Part shown: positions 21,118-27,283 of the stretch, one piece after another
Numbering within the stretch: the stretch's first letter is position 1
Layout: the number at the start of each line of letters is the position of its first letter
Assembly: GCA_041565275.1 (NCBI GenBank)
Contig: JBFGVE010000003.1
Span: forward strand, 1-60,529
DNA: 60,529 bases
DNA from: Bacteroidia bacterium
GTDB taxonomy: Bacteria; Bacteroidota; Bacteroidia; J057; JADKCL01
Direction of reading: 5' to 3'
Translations under genes and position numbers: made by a program
Notes under the pieces: generated by a model
The model's input: only the letters and a program-made list of their open reading frames with translations
Told to the model about the DNA's origin: nothing
The model's database searches: none

Positions 21118-22089
21118 GTGGTAAAATCTATTTCCTTTATTCTTCTGGTGATTTCTCTTCACAACCTCTTGGGCTGTGGTTGGGATGACGACAGAGAGTA
21201 TGAAATCCACACTCGTGCCTCTTTTCTTGTAACACAAGATCCGGCAACAGGCTTAAGAAAGGTCTGGCGATATGAAGCCGGGATTCTAATAGAAGGATGG
21301 AATCGGGAAATGGGTGTGTCTGACACAGGATTTAGCGGCTTGGAATACATTGACGGAGAATTGTGGATGGGAGATGCATCAGGAAGGCAGATCCTCCGCA
21401 TTGAACCCTCCAATGATAAAGTCCTGAAACGCTTTGGGGATCTTCCCGTCCGGCCCCATTTCTTTTCGGTGGGTGAGCGCTTTATCCTTATCAGTGATAC
21501 CATAACCGACCAATTGGCCTTCATTCGGATTCGCAATGGAGAGTTAATTATTACAGAGTTTAGCGGTGAATCCGGTCCGGCTATACACAACAATCGCCTC
21601 TTTTTTCTGCAGGTAGGGAATGTAGGTTTGCATGTCATTGACGAATGGGCCCTCACCCCCCGCAATGAAAATCGCTTTTCTTTCACCATTATGGAAATTC
21701 AGTTTAACCGGCTCAAAAACGTCTATTTAACTATGAAAAATGATGTTGGAGATGATTATTCGGGCTTGATTTCCGGCACAGATGGCTCCATCGCCCGAGA
21801 AGGTGCCCCCGTGAACTATCAAAAAATCAGGTATTCTCCTTACCTTGAGGCTCGTTTTGGTTCTGAATGGCTCAGCGATCTACGCCTTAGCAACAACACT
21901 CTGAGCAGCGGTGCCATCATATTTCCGGATTCCATGACCAACTTTGAGGTTGATTTTTTCGAAAGTCGCCTTTTTTATAGTTGGCGAAATACCCTCTACT
22001 ATTACGATATGAATACTCAGGTTCGCCTGGATTCGTTCGAGTTCCCAGATCATTTGATCGAAAGTGTATATTGGGTTGCTGGGAACTAG
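21118..22089 (+). CDS. Hypothetical lipoprotein, beta-rich (propeller-like)
   Basis: Lipobox LLG-C followed by acidic WDDDRE (surface-export-like); beta-strand repeats. GTG start uncertain. Confidence 0.6.
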   Translation: MVKSISFILLVISLHNLLGCGWDDDREYEIHTRASFLVTQDPATGLRKVWRYEAGILIEGWNREMGVSDTGFSGLEYIDGELWMGDASGRQILRIEPSNDKVLKRFGDLPVRPHFFSVGERFILISDTITDQLAFIRIRNGELIITEFSGESGPAIHNNRLFFLQVGNVGLHVIDEWALTPRNENRFSFTIMEIQFNRLKNVYLTMKNDVGDDYSGLISGTDGSIAREGAPVNYQKIRYSPYLEARFGSEWLSDLRLSNNTLSSGAIIFPDSMTNFEVDFFESRLFYSWRNTLYYYDMNTQVRLDSFEFPDHLIESVYWVAGN

Positions 22090-22299: not shown

Positions 22300-22307
22300 T
22301 ATCTTTA
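22300..22307 (+). promoter_or_regulatory. Putative -7 promoter element
   Basis: TATCTTTA, 16 nt before ATG 22324; supports that start over GTG 22249. Confidence 0.4.
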
Positions 22308-22323: not shown

Positions 22324-23490
22324 ATGAATCCATGCGGGAGATTACGGGCTTGTTTACTTTTGACTGGATGTTTGGTTTGGAGTGTCGTCTATCCCAAATC
22401 CCTTTCTGCGCAAAACATACCTGCATCAATTGTTTTTGTCGAAGGCTACGATGCAGAAGAAAATGTCCAGAGTCGGGCCTTGGGAGTTGTAGTGAAGAAG
22501 GGGTTTGTAGCAGTCAACTACCATGCAGTGGCAGGAATGGCCTCGATAGGTATCATTGAGCAGCAGAAGCCGCAAAAGATTGTCAGTGAAGGCTATCTTT
22601 CTGTTGAAGAGGCTAGGGATCTGATCGTGATCGCTGCTCCAGGGATTGAATCTCCCCCAGCCACCTTTAGTACGCTTAATTTTCCTATAGATGGGGATAA
22701 AGTCACCCTCTTTTCCAATCCCGAAACACGTCGGGTCAAACCCGCAAGTGCTAAAGTGATGGGCAGCAAGGAATTGTTGGAATACTTCCTCCCGCAACTG
22801 CTTTCCAGGCAGACGGAAGATTGTACAAGCGGTCCGATATTCAAGGATGACAAATTTGTTGGTTTTGTCGCCGCAGGCTATCTGGATGATCAATTCTATG
22901 CTTATGCTATTCCTGCCTTTGAACTCAGCCGGATTCTCAACCGTAGCTTTATAATTAAGGCTTTTAATTCGCTCGATGAACTGCAACCCATTGAGAGTAG
23001 CTATTTTCAGAAAAATCTGATGGAAAATCTGAATTCTGTACTTTGGAAATCACTAGAAGATGCGGAACGGCTGGCACGTAAAAACTCGAAGATGATACTC
23101 ATTGATGTTTCATCGGAATGGTCAGGATGGTCCAAACTGATGAGGAAAAATACCTATACCAGCAAAAAGATTATACGGTACATTAACGAAAATTATTATG
23201 CGGTCCGCCTCAATGCAGAGAGTCGAGAGCCTATCGTCTTAAACAAATTGACATACCAAGGTGCCAGCGAGGGCAGTTATCACAGCTTGGCCTACTCTTT
23301 GCTGGAAGGGAATATGGAGTTTCCGTCCACTGTGATCGTGGACGAGGAGATAAATGTCATAATGGTTATTCCGGGACAGATAGATACCCAAAAGCTGGAG
23401 GTCATTCTCCATTATTTTAAGGAAAAGGTCTACTTGGACAAGAGGAAAACATTCCAAGACTATGAACGGAATTTCCATGCGATATACTAA
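22324..23490 (+). CDS. Exported trypsin-like domain + thioredoxin-like (DUF255-type) fusion, both active sites degenerate
   Basis: Signal peptide ending SLSAQ; NYHAV (His), RDLIVI (Asp), EDCTSGPIF in place of PGNSGGPL; thioredoxin IDVSSEWSGWSKLM in place of WCGWC; EGNMEFPSTVI cis-Pro loop. Confidence 0.8.
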   Translation: MNPCGRLRACLLLTGCLVWSVVYPKSLSAQNIPASIVFVEGYDAEENVQSRALGVVVKKGFVAVNYHAVAGMASIGIIEQQKPQKIVSEGYLSVEEARDLIVIAAPGIESPPATFSTLNFPIDGDKVTLFSNPETRRVKPASAKVMGSKELLEYFLPQLLSRQTEDCTSGPIFKDDKFVGFVAAGYLDDQFYAYAIPAFELSRILNRSFIIKAFNSLDELQPIESSYFQKNLMENLNSVLWKSLEDAERLARKNSKMILIDVSSEWSGWSKLMRKNTYTSKKIIRYINENYYAVRLNAESREPIVLNKLTYQGASEGSYHSLAYSLLEGNMEFPSTVIVDEEINVIMVIPGQIDTQKLEVILHYFKEKVYLDKRKTFQDYERNFHAIY

Positions 23491-23524
23491 TAAGGATCAA
23501 AATTGATTCAGGAGAGATTGAGTT

Positions 23525-24166
23525 ATGGCAAGAAAAAATAAACCAAAGGAAAAAGAGATGGCAGAAAACCCGAAGTTTACCTCAGAAGAAGTAGAATCTG
23601 CTGATAATCAGCACGAAAAAGAGAAAGAAAACGGTGAAACGGTAGAAGAAAATACAATTAATGAGAGCAATGTTGGGGTCGGTAATGGGCCATTGGACGA
23701 AGTAAGCCTGTTGAAAATACGATTGGAAACGGTTCAGAAAGAAGCGGTGGAATTCAGAGAAAAACATGTCCGATTGATGGCAGAATTTGATAACTTCCGT
23801 AAGCGGACCCGCCGTGAAACAGAAAATTTTCGTGAATACGCCAACGAAGAGATGATGACAGCTCTTTTGCCAGTGGTGGATGACTTTACACGCACCATGA
23901 CTGCCATGGAGGAGACTGACAATCTGGCATCCCTGAAGGAAGGGATAAGCCTTGTTAATGGAAAGCTGTGGAACATTCTGGAGAAAAAGGGACTAAAGAC
24001 CTTAAATCCACTGGGAGAGGTGTTTGACATGGAATACCACGAAGCCATTCACAGTCTCCCAGTAGAAGAGGAGGAAAAGAAGGGTATCGTACTAGATGTG
24101 GTTGAAAAAGGTTATCAACTTAAGGACAAGGTCATTCGGTATGCTAAGGTAGTAGTAGGAGAATAA
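23525..24166 (+). CDS. grpE: Nucleotide exchange factor GrpE
   Basis: RLMAEFDNFRKRT, LLPVVDDF, FDMEYHEAI, KGYQLKDKVIRYAKVVV. Confidence 0.97.
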   Translation: MARKNKPKEKEMAENPKFTSEEVESADNQHEKEKENGETVEENTINESNVGVGNGPLDEVSLLKIRLETVQKEAVEFREKHVRLMAEFDNFRKRTRRETENFREYANEEMMTALLPVVDDFTRTMTAMEETDNLASLKEGISLVNGKLWNILEKKGLKTLNPLGEVFDMEYHEAIHSLPVEEEEKKGIVLDVVEKGYQLKDKVIRYAKVVVGE

Positions 24167-24168
24167 AT

Positions 24169-25329
24169 ATGTCTAAAAGAGATTATTACGACGTACTGGG
24201 CATCAGCAAAAGTGCTGAACAGAGCGAAATCAAGAAGGCCTATCGCAAGATAGCTATGAAATACCACCCTGATAAAAATCCTGGTGATGCCAAGGCAGAA
24301 GAAAAATTCAAGGAAGCCGCTGCAGCTTATGATGTTCTTAGCAACGAGGACAAGAAGGCCCGTTATGATCGCTTCGGTCATGCAGGTCTTGATGGCGGCA
24401 GTGGTGGAAGCTATTCTTCTGTAAATGTGGAGGATATCTTCTCTCGATTCTCCGATATATTTGGCGGCAATGGAGGTGGAAATCCTTTCGATAGTTTCTT
24501 TGGGAGTGGTGGGGGTAGCCGTCGTCGCGCCCGTGGGCAGCGTGGTTCTGACCTCCGTGTAAAAGTCAGGCTCACCATGGAAGAAGTCTTCCAAGGCGTT
24601 GAGAAGAAAATCAAACTGCGTCGTATGACAACTTGCGAGGTTTGTGATGGAGCAGGAGCTGAAAGCCAAAGTGATTTTCAAACTTGCGGGACTTGTAATG
24701 GGACTGGAGAGTTGCGTCGTCAAGCTGGCGGAGGTTTCTTTCAGCAAATCGTTGTGACTGCTTGTCCCACTTGCCAGGGTGAGGGACGCACCCTTTCCAA
24801 GGCTTGTAAAGGTTGTTCGGGTGAAGGACGGGTTGAAACTACAGAAGTGGTTGAAATTCCAATTCCAGCAGGTATCTCCGAAGGTATGCAACTAACCATG
24901 CGTGGCAAAGGCCATGCCGGACGTCGGGGCGGCTCGGCAGGTGATCTCCAGATTCTTATCGAAGAAACTCCACACGAATCGTTTTCTCGAGATGGTGACA
25001 ATGTTGTTTATGAACTGTTCATCAGTTTCCCTGATGCTGTCCTTGGCCGCAGCGTAGAAGTACCCACCCTGAGTGGTAAAACCCGTTTCAAGGTCTCTCC
25101 TGGTACTCAATCCGGCAAAGTATTTCGCCTCAAAGGCAAAGGTATTCCCAATGTCAACGGTTACGGTTCCGGCGACCAACTTATTCAGGTGATGGTTTGG
25201 ATTCCCAAGAACCTAAGTAATAAAGAGCGGACTCAATTAGAAGCAATGCGAGATTCTGATAACTTCCAACCGAATCCAACGGGTTTAGAAAAGGGGTTCT
25301 TCTCCCGTTTGCGAGACATGTTTTCCTGA
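24169..25329 (+). CDS. dnaJ: Chaperone DnaJ
   Basis: J domain with HPD, G/F region, four CxxCxGxG repeats, C-terminal GDLQI...GDNV. Confidence 0.98.
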   Translation: MSKRDYYDVLGISKSAEQSEIKKAYRKIAMKYHPDKNPGDAKAEEKFKEAAAAYDVLSNEDKKARYDRFGHAGLDGGSGGSYSSVNVEDIFSRFSDIFGGNGGGNPFDSFFGSGGGSRRRARGQRGSDLRVKVRLTMEEVFQGVEKKIKLRRMTTCEVCDGAGAESQSDFQTCGTCNGTGELRRQAGGGFFQQIVVTACPTCQGEGRTLSKACKGCSGEGRVETTEVVEIPIPAGISEGMQLTMRGKGHAGRRGGSAGDLQILIEETPHESFSRDGDNVVYELFISFPDAVLGRSVEVPTLSGKTRFKVSPGTQSGKVFRLKGKGIPNVNGYGSGDQLIQVMVWIPKNLSNKERTQLEAMRDSDNFQPNPTGLEKGFFSRLRDMFS

Positions 25330-25426: not shown

Positions 25427-27283
25427 TTACAACTGGTCTAGAAACTCCCGGAGGGCTTTTTGATTCTGCCTCGCTTGCTCATAAAATGGGTCTTTGGCAA
25501 GTGCAGCACTAAAAAGTGAATCAGCTATTTGATAATTCCCAGTATTCATCTCTATGAACCCAAGGTTGGTGAGGAGGCTCTTATCAAAAGGTTTAATAAT
25601 CAGGCATTCGCGGAATATCTGACCTGCCTTGGCCAAAGCGGATGCTGGATCAATTCCAGAGTTGGAAGCATGGACTTGCTTTAAAGTCAACAAGCCTATT
25701 TTCTGGCCCGCTGGGGTTAGGTAAGTATTGGTCTGGTAGGCACGTTCATAAAAGGAAATGGCCCCTCTGATATTTCCCATGCCTTCCAGAATCTCCCCTT
25801 TTTGATAAAGTCGCCAAGGATCATTGGGATCAGTTGTCAAGGCCTGATCGATCTCATCCAAAGCTGCTTCAAGGTTGCCTTGGTAAAAAAATACCTTAGA
25901 CCGCTCAAAGTGGGAAGTGGGCGCAATCTCTTTAGCAGCACGGTCCAGGAATTCTGGCTTAGGATCGTTCCGTTCATAATGAAGAAGATAAGCTTTTCCA
26001 TACACATCGGGAGCAACCTTTTGGTTGGTCATGCAGACCAAGTCTACAAACTCTCGGACAGCGAGGGCCTCAACCGTATCATCTTTAACGATCCTAATCT
26101 TATGGTCTGAGAACAGGACATGTGGGATATCGCTGGTTCCCCTCTTAGGCATATGACAAGTCACACAATTTCCATTTTCAGCTGCTATCATCTCTTCTGA
26201 CAAGCCACAACCGGTCTTACCGTTTACACTATGGCAATTCATGCACTTCTCAACATAGACTTTTTGCCCGGTAATGGAGATGCTCTTATGTGGGTTGTGG
26301 CAGGTGGTACAATTAAGGCTGTCCTTGCTGTTAATGAAGCATTGGGACTCGCGTAGTCTCTCTGCATGGGAAGCAATGCCAAAGGCTTCTCCGTCAGCCA
26401 CCTTTTGAATAAAAATGTCATAAATTTGGTTCAGCGCCATGCCGGGACGGTAATCAACTACAGACTTATGGTTTCCCTTCAAAACATTGATTCCTTGTAA
26501 ATGGCACTGCTGGCAAATATCAAACTGCAAGCCAATAGGAAGATTGGCCGGGTTTACGATCGAATAGTCTATTTTTCGGCCTACATCAATCAGTTCTCCT
26601 CCTTCCTTAAGGAGTTTGTGAATTGATCCTGGGCCGTGGCATTTTTCACAGCCGATCCCCAGGCTGACTTCCCGGAATTGGTTTGTTGTACCCTCCCTAA
26701 AGTCAATATGTCCAGTATGACAAGCCATACATTCCTCGCCGATCTCACGGTCAAAACGGGTATTGAATCCATTTTCATATCCGGGGCTTAAGTCCCAACG
26801 CTGACCTTTAACATACCAAGTAATGGGTATTTCGTAGAAATGTTGGTTGCGTTCGATGAGATAAGAACGGGTTTGGTGGCCGGAACCGATAATATAATTG
26901 ACTTTCTCGATGCGTTTGTAGGTCGTATCATTGGCTGGACTCAGGCGAAATTCCAGAATGAGTAAATCATTGCCACTCCAATATGGATGGTAGTAGTAGC
27001 CTGAATGAGAATCAAATATGACCTCTTTTGGACCAAAGCGTTCTATAATTTCCGATCTGCTAGGTTGATAAAGCGATCGGCCCATCCCCGTTTGGAGATA
27101 GGATTGATAAATCTCTTTGTGGCACGGCTGGCAAGATTTCATACCCACATATTGAGCTTCTGGCCCGAGATTAAGGTAGGTATCAGGAGGATCAATGGTG
27201 GCAAAATCCCCTGTACAACTAGCAAACCAAGCCATTAGCATGAGGATTGCGAATCCGCTTAGATACAAATAGATAGGATGCAT
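25427..27283 (-). CDS. Multiheme (7 CxxCH) cytochrome c lipoprotein with C-terminal TPR domain
   Basis: Lipobox FAS-C; CQPCH, CMACH, CEKCH, CQQCH, CTTCH, CMNCH, CVTCH; TPR helices (YQKGEILEGMG, LTNLGFIEMNTG). A -7-like TATCTTTC lies at 27291-27298. Confidence 0.9.
   Translation of the reverse strand: MHPIYLYLSGFAILMLMAWFASCTGDFATIDPPDTYLNLGPEAQYVGMKSCQPCHKEIYQSYLQTGMGRSLYQPSRSEIIERFGPKEVIFDSHSGYYYHPYWSGNDLLILEFRLSPANDTTYKRIEKVNYIIGSGHQTRSYLIERNQHFYEIPITWYVKGQRWDLSPGYENGFNTRFDREIGEECMACHTGHIDFREGTTNQFREVSLGIGCEKCHGPGSIHKLLKEGGELIDVGRKIDYSIVNPANLPIGLQFDICQQCHLQGINVLKGNHKSVVDYRPGMALNQIYDIFIQKVADGEAFGIASHAERLRESQCFINSKDSLNCTTCHNPHKSISITGQKVYVEKCMNCHSVNGKTGCGLSEEMIAAENGNCVTCHMPKRGTSDIPHVLFSDHKIRIVKDDTVEALAVREFVDLVCMTNQKVAPDVYGKAYLLHYERNDPKPEFLDRAAKEIAPTSHFERSKVFFYQGNLEAALDEIDQALTTDPNDPWRLYQKGEILEGMGNIRGAISFYERAYQTNTYLTPAGQKIGLLTLKQVHASNSGIDPASALAKAGQIFRECLIIKPFDKSLLTNLGFIEMNTGNYQIADSLFSAALAKDPFYEQARQNQKALREFLDQL

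Follow-up and report, generated by a model that had tools for sequence, protein, structure and literature searches.

A secreted Bacteroidota protein, encoded next to grpE-dnaJ, without the catalytic residues of its protease-like and thioredoxin-like domains

Why should a bacterium keep, directly in front of grpE and dnaJ, a gene for an exported protein in which the catalytic residues of two different enzyme folds have been replaced? The question is raised by P0001, a secreted two-domain protein of 388 aa encoded at positions 22324–23490 on the plus strand of a 60,529-nucleotide stretch of Bacteroidia DNA (contig JBFGVE010000003.1 of assembly GCA_041565275.1; hereafter the window). Judged by its sequence, P0001 lacks the residues for both serine-protease and dithiol chemistry and is nevertheless kept by selection. 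Here we consider how this state arose, what the protein might do, and whether its position next to two co-chaperone genes says anything about either.

The open reading frame (ORF) is intact, running from an ATG at 22324 to a stop codon that ends at 23490, and the 40 homologues found at E <= 1e-85 rule out a chance ORF. A mechanical list of ORFs opens the frame further upstream, at GTG 22249; we favour the ATG because orthologues begin at the equivalent methionine and because a conserved TATCTTT(G/A) box at 22300–22307 falls within the GTG extension. The N-terminus reads MNPCGRLR, then a hydrophobic stretch, then SLSA|Q with a small-x-small site, and this basic, hydrophobic, small-x-small pattern is common to all relatives of P0001. 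It marks a predicted signal peptide of about 30 residues (22324–22413), probably cleaved after SLSA, and in the AlphaFold2 model a helix (residues 3–22) is followed by a disordered low-confidence stretch (24–29) and by the start of the first domain at about residue 36. On the strength of this predicted signal peptide, P0001 is taken to be exported to the periplasm. The sequence LTGC (residues 13–16) was considered as a lipobox and rejected, as it reads LAGW in the closest relative (L001) and the hydrophobic core runs on beyond the cysteine.

The N-terminal half of the mature protein (residues 31–205; 22414–22938) is an HtrA/S1C chymotrypsin-fold domain without a serine nucleophile, as assigned by Foldseek and by a family profile. 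The full-length AlphaFold2 model, built on the family alignment, has a mean predicted local distance difference test (pLDDT) score of 83.5, and its N-domain matches RsgI9 S1C, MarP, DegS, DegP/DegQ, plant Deg proteases and MamO at E values from 1e-13 to 1e-9; for RsgI9 S1C, MarP, DegS and DegP the Foldseek probability is 1.0 and the target-normalised template modelling (TM) score reaches 0.73. The same half searched as a single sequence gave weak matches (MarP, 3e-4; PDB 7sjy, 2.5e-3), and a profile of 37 family members found RsgI9 S1C (7sjy) at E 5e-12 and both MarP and DegP-like proteases at around 1e-5 (MarP, 1e-5; DegP-like proteases, ~1e-5). Pfam gave no PF13365 (Trypsin_2) match in P0001 at E <= 1, and a precomputed match to that family is present in only some of its relatives. 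No PDZ domain was found C-terminal of the S1C-like domain, that half of the protein being the thioredoxin fold, and a database search with the N-domain only recovered the same family alone and no other architecture.

Within this fold two of the three triad positions are kept. His67 (CAT, 22522–22524), in an NYH motif also present in RsgI9 and in a Bacteroidota Trypsin_2 relative (L084), and Asp99 (GAT, 22618–22620), in DLIV, align with the triad histidine and aspartate of MarP, RsgI9 and L084. The L1 or nucleophile loop (GAA GAT TGT ACA AGC GGT CCG, 22816–22836) reads E165-D166-C167-T168-S169-G170-P171; when it is aligned with MarP (GDSGGP), RsgI9 and L084 (GSSGGP), T168 falls on the nucleophile Ser195 and D166 on Gly193. 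Cys167 was considered as a substitute nucleophile and rejected, since it occupies position 194, not 195, and 10 of the 34 members of the cysteine-less clade described below have S, T, L, F or Y instead. The protein from L084 (1206–2600, minus strand, genome G255) is a secreted Trypsin_2 protein of 464 aa with intact NYH, DLILL and GSSGGP motifs; its C-terminal region is unrelated. Among the matches listed for the phylum genome sample it alone matched the N-domain (E 1.5e-23), and it is plausibly related to the active ancestor from which the Ser-less domain came.

The C-terminal half (residues 239–388; 23038–23487) is a DUF255/DsbH-type thioredoxin-fold domain and the only part of P0001 that Pfam recognises (PF03190, Thioredox_DsbH/DUF255; 34.6 bits against a cut-off of 27, E 2.3e-8). 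A separate model of residues 232–388 (pLDDT 75) is also a thioredoxin fold by Foldseek, with matches to the Bacteroides DsbD-C-like structure 3f9u, H. pylori HP0377 (4fyb), DsbD-gamma, thioredoxins, DsbH and the DUF255 structures 3ira and 2kuc. The redox-active CxxC is absent from this domain: TGG TCA GGA TGG TCC at 23119–23133 encodes W266-S-G-W-S270 in place of WCGWC. As the single cysteine of the mature protein is C167, in the protease-fold domain, intramolecular dithiol chemistry is impossible in P0001. The frame of the former active site is kept, with W266 and G268 invariant and W269 present in 33 of 34 proteins of the cysteine-less clade, and with only small residues at the former cysteine positions. 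Pro334 (23323–23325), in an MxFPSTV loop presumed from its place in the fold to be the cis-proline loop facing the former active site, is invariant in 44/44 sequences, and 46% of the columns of loop 328–340 are invariant in the clade. The linker that joins the two domains (residues 206–238; 22939–23037; RSFIIK...Q...L) has a pLDDT of 66–74 and the highest proportion of columns invariant in the clade among the three whole segments (24%, against 13% for the N-domain and 16% for the thioredoxin domain).

In all these respects the sequence-only reading that singled out the locus was accurate. It had described an intact ORF with a signal peptide that ends 34 nt before grpE, kept histidine and aspartate positions, a nucleophile loop with Thr for Ser and Asp for the oxyanion Gly, and WSGWS for WCGWC; the codons and alignments agree, and the two folds it assumed are supported by the models. 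The checks it proposed on fixation, purifying selection, synteny and a structural model likewise turned out favourably.

The substitutions are not confined to one genome. A search of 5.8 billion proteins returned 40 relatives at 41–82% identity, all from Bacteroidota metagenome-assembled genomes or metagenomes and annotated only as 'DUF255 domain-containing', 'thioredoxin-related' or 'trypsin-like peptidase domain-containing', and an exhaustive HMMER scan, covering 1.84 billion cluster representatives, brought in a further three full-length but more distant members with identities as low as 29%, the remainder of its matches being stand-alone or tandem thioredoxin-domain proteins. The family thus comprises about 44 full-length sequences, all from uncultured Bacteroidota whose carriers have no cultured representative. 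The two-domain protein is found in 11 of the 12 sampled species of the window's taxonomic family (f1) and in none of the order's other families (78 genomes), and in an even sample of the phylum (401 genomes) the full-length protein occurred only in the window's own genome.

Across the family, serine is found at the nucleophile position in 0 of 44 members. The ten basal members, which branch deeply or retain at least some of the thioredoxin cysteines, have threonine there in three cases, leucine in two, isoleucine in two, and glutamine, aspartate and arginine in the others, whereas in the 34 cysteine-less members His67, Asp99 and Thr168 are all invariant and position 193 is D, E or H. Gly193 is kept only in the basal P0037 and P0039, both of which read GSTGGP. 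Six members have WCGWC as their thioredoxin motif, among them one from a genome of family f1 (L063); three have WNGWC and the remainder W[SATN]G[WY][STAGV]. In a maximum-likelihood tree all 34 cysteine-less proteins, P0001 among them, form one clade with a Shimodaira–Hasegawa-like approximate likelihood ratio (SH-aLRT) support of 99, so that the complete loss of CxxC happened once; the clade has since diversified down to about 45% identity, and an independent cysteine loss is seen in one distant sequence. Since no sampled member has serine (44 sequences, down to 29% identity), the protease domain was, as far as can be seen, already Ser-less in the common ancestor of the family, and the loss of CxxC is the only datable event inside it. 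The proposal of two separate catalytic losses in this ORF therefore stands for the cysteines, which were lost once within the family, and needs correction for the serine, which, on the sequences sampled, was not lost within this lineage.

Both domains remain under strong purifying selection. Between the window and L001 (82% amino-acid identity) the Nei-Gojobori ratio of nonsynonymous to synonymous substitution rates (dN/dS) is 0.063 overall, 0.067 in the N-domain, 0.047 in the linker and 0.056 in the thioredoxin domain; four other pairs from the cysteine-less clade give 0.08–0.12, and per-domain values in the protease-fold and thioredoxin domains lie at 0.06–0.11. With dS high (~1–1.6) these values are approximate, yet they are far below 1, in keeping with the earlier suggestion that the ORF is maintained. 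The thioredoxin domain is the more conserved half (dN 0.055 against 0.104), and at matched N-domain divergence the ratio of thioredoxin-domain to N-domain divergence is 0.70 for cysteine-less pairs and 0.68 for CxxC pairs, which gives no indication that constraint was relaxed once the cysteines had gone. Because W266, G268 and P334 are invariant and the cysteine sites admit only small residues, the surface of the former active site is still under selection, as would be expected if that surface were still used for binding.

What, then, does the position of the gene tell us? P0001 is followed, after a 34-nt spacer (23491–23524), by grpE (23525–24166; PF01025, E 1.5e-38) and dnaJ (24169–25329; PF00226, PF00684 and PF01556), all on the plus strand. 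The grpE-dnaJ pair lies directly downstream on the same strand in every family locus examined, these being seven genome loci, the four most distant members (29–44% identity) and three loci from a whole-genome search, and gaps of -1 to 43 nt separate the family gene from grpE in 12 loci. The 34-nt spacer has no terminator-like hairpin, and the Bacteroidota-type -7 consensus, TAnnTTTG, is absent from the 300 nt ahead of grpE throughout these 12 loci. It is likely, as far as short gaps and missing signals can indicate, that P0001 is co-transcribed with grpE-dnaJ. A candidate Bacteroidota-type -7 box, TATCTTTA (22300–22307, plus strand), with one mismatch to TAnnTTTG, is located 24 nt upstream of the ATG in a block conserved between the window and L001, and an exact TATCTTTG precedes the ATG by 23 nt in L001 and by 28 nt in L002. 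Window-wide the -7 motif is not enriched (50 found, 44 expected), a sigma-70 scan of the window gave fewer promoter-like sites than shuffled sequence, the terminator-like sites found in the window are weak and lie within ORFs, and no match to the CIRCE heat-shock operator (controlling inverted repeat of chaperone expression) was found in the window at up to 3 mismatches.

On the other side of the gene, DUF4290 and murA are immediately upstream in most family members; murA is upstream in those loci of family f63 with a long enough flank and, within f1, in loci from outside the window's genus. That genus has lost the link to murA (there is no murA in the window) and kept the one to grpE. The TATCTTT(G/A) box 23–28 nt before the ATG is present only in this genus, where murA is no longer upstream.

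The grpE linkage was initially treated as a property of the pseudoenzyme, and this has to be given up. In other families of the order the interval between murA and grpE-dnaJ holds a stand-alone secreted homologue of the P0001 C-domain, about 185 aa long, with an intact motif (WCGWC, WCQYC, WCRWC or WCAWC). Among the 20 best-matching grpE loci of the order from outside f1, 15 have such a WCxxC thioredoxin directly upstream of grpE, and by coordinates it adjoins grpE in at least 28 genomes. Loci with the full murA-thioredoxin-grpE-dnaJ arrangement include L094, L097–L106, L108–L110 and L114; the L107 genome has murA-grpE with nothing in between. Beyond this order, grpE is not the neighbour of the best thioredoxin homologues. 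Stand-alone Bacteroidota DUF255/DsbH thioredoxins (PF03190; 2kuc, 3f9u; Chlamydia DsbH, 2ju5) are 32–47% identical to the P0001 domain, and those of the same order share with P0001 the identical slot upstream of grpE; unlike P0001 they retain WCxxC and are not joined to a protease fold.

When the thioredoxin domains are placed in a tree, those of the two-domain proteins form one clade (SH-aLRT 98), which groups (SH-aLRT 93) with stand-alone genes linked to grpE from four families of the order. The stand-alone WCGWC paralogue of P0001 in its own genome (~190 aa; C246, L024 1501–1908) is unlinked to grpE and groups with unlinked homologues of other families, apart from the grpE-linked lineage. 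As the slot is filled by a CxxC thioredoxin across the order, the grpE linkage is older than either the fusion or the cysteine loss; and as that linkage is ancestral to a competent thioredoxin, it provides no evidence for a special partnership of pseudoenzyme and chaperone. The simplest history is that an ancestral murA-thioredoxin(CxxC)-grpE-dnaJ locus underwent one fusion to a Ser-less HtrA-fold N-terminal domain, in the lineage leading to the window's taxonomic family, and one later loss of both cysteines. In limited literature searches we did not find the murA-thioredoxin-grpE-dnaJ pairing, the two-domain fusion or its stepwise origin described.

Turning to function, we hold with modest confidence, and largely by analogy, that P0001 is a non-catalytic periplasmic binding module, most plausibly a holdase or client-presenting factor made together with GrpE and DnaJ. 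With an acidic residue at position 193, as in MamO, the oxyanion hole of the HtrA-fold cleft would be unable to form, and the groove of the former thioredoxin active site would lie next to that cleft in one protein. Cleft and groove might then bind unfolded or exposed segments of envelope proteins without cutting or reducing them, in the manner of a holdase or client-delivery factor, and joint transcription with grpE-dnaJ would allow periplasmic and cytoplasmic folding capacity to rise together. Catalysis could be supplied from elsewhere in the genome, which keeps three intact HtrA genes (GNSGGA) and one stand-alone DUF255 thioredoxin paralogue with WCGWC.

HtrA-fold pseudoproteases and cysteine-less thioredoxin-fold chaperones are both already known kinds of protein. 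DegP retains chaperone activity when its serine is mutated, and DegP, DegQ and DegS share with P0001 the fold, a periplasmic location and a tie to protein quality control; what sets them apart is their Ser-His-Asp triad, GNSGG loop, PDZ domains and oligomeric cage, none of which was found for P0001. The chaperedoxin CnoX (YbbN) is a holdase with a thioredoxin fold without a canonical CxxC, tied to DnaK, DnaJ and GrpE; it is cytoplasmic, has a tetratricopeptide repeat (TPR) domain and transfers clients directly to DnaK or GroEL, whereas P0001 is exported and so has no contact with GrpE or DnaJ.

Several points weigh against a holdase. The activity itself is proposed by analogy to DegP S210A and to cysteine-less thioredoxin-fold chaperones, adjacency to genes for cytoplasmic co-chaperones does not prove shared function, and for co-transcription the indications are short gaps and absent signals. 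The closest solved relative, RsgI9 S1C, binds polysaccharide and not peptides. Thr168, moreover, is fixed in the cysteine-less clade and variable in the basal members, for which a passive scaffold gives no obvious reason.

The relationship to RsgI9 supports what we regard as the best of the alternatives, although still an unlikely one: that the N-domain binds or senses a non-peptide ligand such as a glycan or the cell wall, as RsgI9 S1C does, and that the protein tethers a carbohydrate or envelope ligand. The S1C domain of RsgI9 (Clostridium thermocellum; 7sjy) is the best PDB match by profile (5e-12, against 1e-5 for true proteases) and by fold, has been described as a protease-like domain that binds cellulose and does not cleave (PMC10328401, PMC12203970), and resembles P0001 in lacking a serine nucleophile and in being extracytoplasmic. 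It reads NYH, KDL and ESTGGP, residues taken from the PDB sequence alignment, so that the His-Asp-Thr pattern is common to both proteins. Against a glycan binder, identity to RsgI9 is only ~15%, and RsgI9 sits in the membrane as an anti-sigma factor, has an NTF2 domain and senses cellulose, whereas P0001 has no NTF2 domain and only a signal peptide ahead of the S1C-like domain, with no anti-sigma module, transmembrane segment, autoproteolytic periplasmic domain or cytoplasmic signalling part. The fusion partner and the locus point instead to protein folding, and the residues that line the peptide-binding strand, A184-G185-Y186, are invariant.

A little less probable again is that P0001 is a redox-inactive adaptor, its cysteine-less thioredoxin domain docking the substrates or partners of a CxxC paralogue (of the DsbD, CcmG or DsbH type) and acting as a trap, regulator or scaffold. 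The greater conservation of the thioredoxin half, with its active-site frame kept, is consistent with this, as are its fold relatives (DsbD-gamma, HP0377/CcmG-like proteins and DsbH) and the WCGWC paralogue in the same genome. The proposal is nonetheless purely inferential, with no linked partner gene; the multihaem cytochrome neighbour is on the opposite strand and, among the compared loci, occurs only in L001. That neighbour (25427–27283, minus strand), which converges on dnaJ, encodes a protein of 618 aa with several CXXCH haem motifs (cytochrome c554/c7-like, paired-CXXCH) and C-terminal TPR repeats, and is 83% identical in L001.

The behaviour of Thr168 raises two further possibilities. 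Thr168 turned invariant in the same clade in which the cysteines were lost, which suggests a shift in constraint on the threonine coinciding with the loss of CxxC, and the cause of its invariance could be a network of structural hydrogen bonds, contact with a ligand or new chemistry. One possibility, which we rate as low as the adaptor, is that murA-thioredoxin-grpE-dnaJ marks an undescribed coupling of periplasmic and cytoplasmic proteostasis in which the window's clade traded thiol chemistry for an activity of His67-Asp99-Thr168, P0001 then being a neo-functionalised enzyme or a specific ligand receptor and not a passive double pseudoenzyme.

The other, more doubtful still, is that His67-Asp99-Thr168 is a working triad, making P0001 a Thr-nucleophile hydrolase or acyl-transferase that is essential in the cysteine-less clade. 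The trio is invariant throughout that clade and the threonine position varies in members that keep CxxC, and Baird, Wright and Craik are said to have reported in 2006 that an engineered trypsin can use a Thr nucleophile if local packing allows. On the other hand, basal members have Ile, Leu or Gln at the nucleophile position, P0001 falls below the Pfam Trypsin_2 threshold, and position 193 is D, E or H throughout the clade, a change that in MamO sterically forbids an active oxyanion hole (PMC4794232). MamO (Magnetospirillum; 5hm9/5hma) is a close parallel, being an HtrA/Trypsin_2-fold pseudoprotease with Thr195, an acidic residue (Glu) at 193 and the histidine and aspartate kept, which coexists with active HtrA paralogues and is among the Foldseek matches of P0001; its crystal structure shows that the oxyanion hole cannot form, its T225A mutation has no phenotype, and its histidine and aspartate matter structurally (PMC4794232). 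The two proteins differ in that MamO is fused to a TauE transporter and uses a di-His site to bind transition metal for magnetite nucleation, whereas P0001 has a thioredoxin-fold partner, no TauE domain (Pfam), a soluble, secreted form and a chaperone-operon locus.

The view that P0001 is simply a decaying gene, under relaxed selection once its catalytic residues were gone, would account for the absence of both motifs and is contradicted to the point of dismissal by the dN/dS values above, by 54 invariant alignment columns, by the lack of relaxation relative to CxxC members, and by a frame that is unbroken both in the full-length sequences collected (more than 40) and in 11 of the 12 f1 genomes.

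Two observations concern the surroundings of the gene. Upstream, at 21118–22089 on the plus strand, a 323-aa ORF with a lipoprotein-like N-terminus (…LLGC) has no Pfam match and no counterpart in the ~4.9 kb upstream of the gene in L001. The genome to which the window belongs (G000) is 3.3 Mb at 98.7% estimated completeness, and the same-genus genomes G459 and G460 are 7.3–7.4 Mb; a sister genus shows a similar split, 2.8 against 6–7.7 Mb, which may be a binning or classification oddity or real size variation.

In conclusion, P0001 appears to be a maintained protein with two enzyme folds and the catalytic chemistry of neither, and we favour, as a reading by analogy, a periplasmic binding module with holdase or client-presenting function. 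As its carriers are uncultured, the present value of this reading is as a hypothesis for the biochemistry of the recombinant protein. The family offers a natural example of the way in which the gene for an enzyme can become that of a non-enzyme while still useful, here by way of a CxxC thioredoxin in a chaperone operon, its fusion to a Ser-less fold and the loss of its cysteines, with selection relaxing at none of these steps. It is also a third independent HtrA-fold lineage, besides MamO and RsgI9, with Thr195 and a residue other than glycine at 193, which points to a recurrent route to pseudoproteases. To our knowledge heat-shock regulation in Bacteroidota is poorly understood, and stress co-regulation is the obvious idea for why an exported factor should have stayed linked to grpE across the order; the locus may represent a conserved and unstudied link of an exported folding factor with grpE-dnaJ in one order of Bacteroidota.

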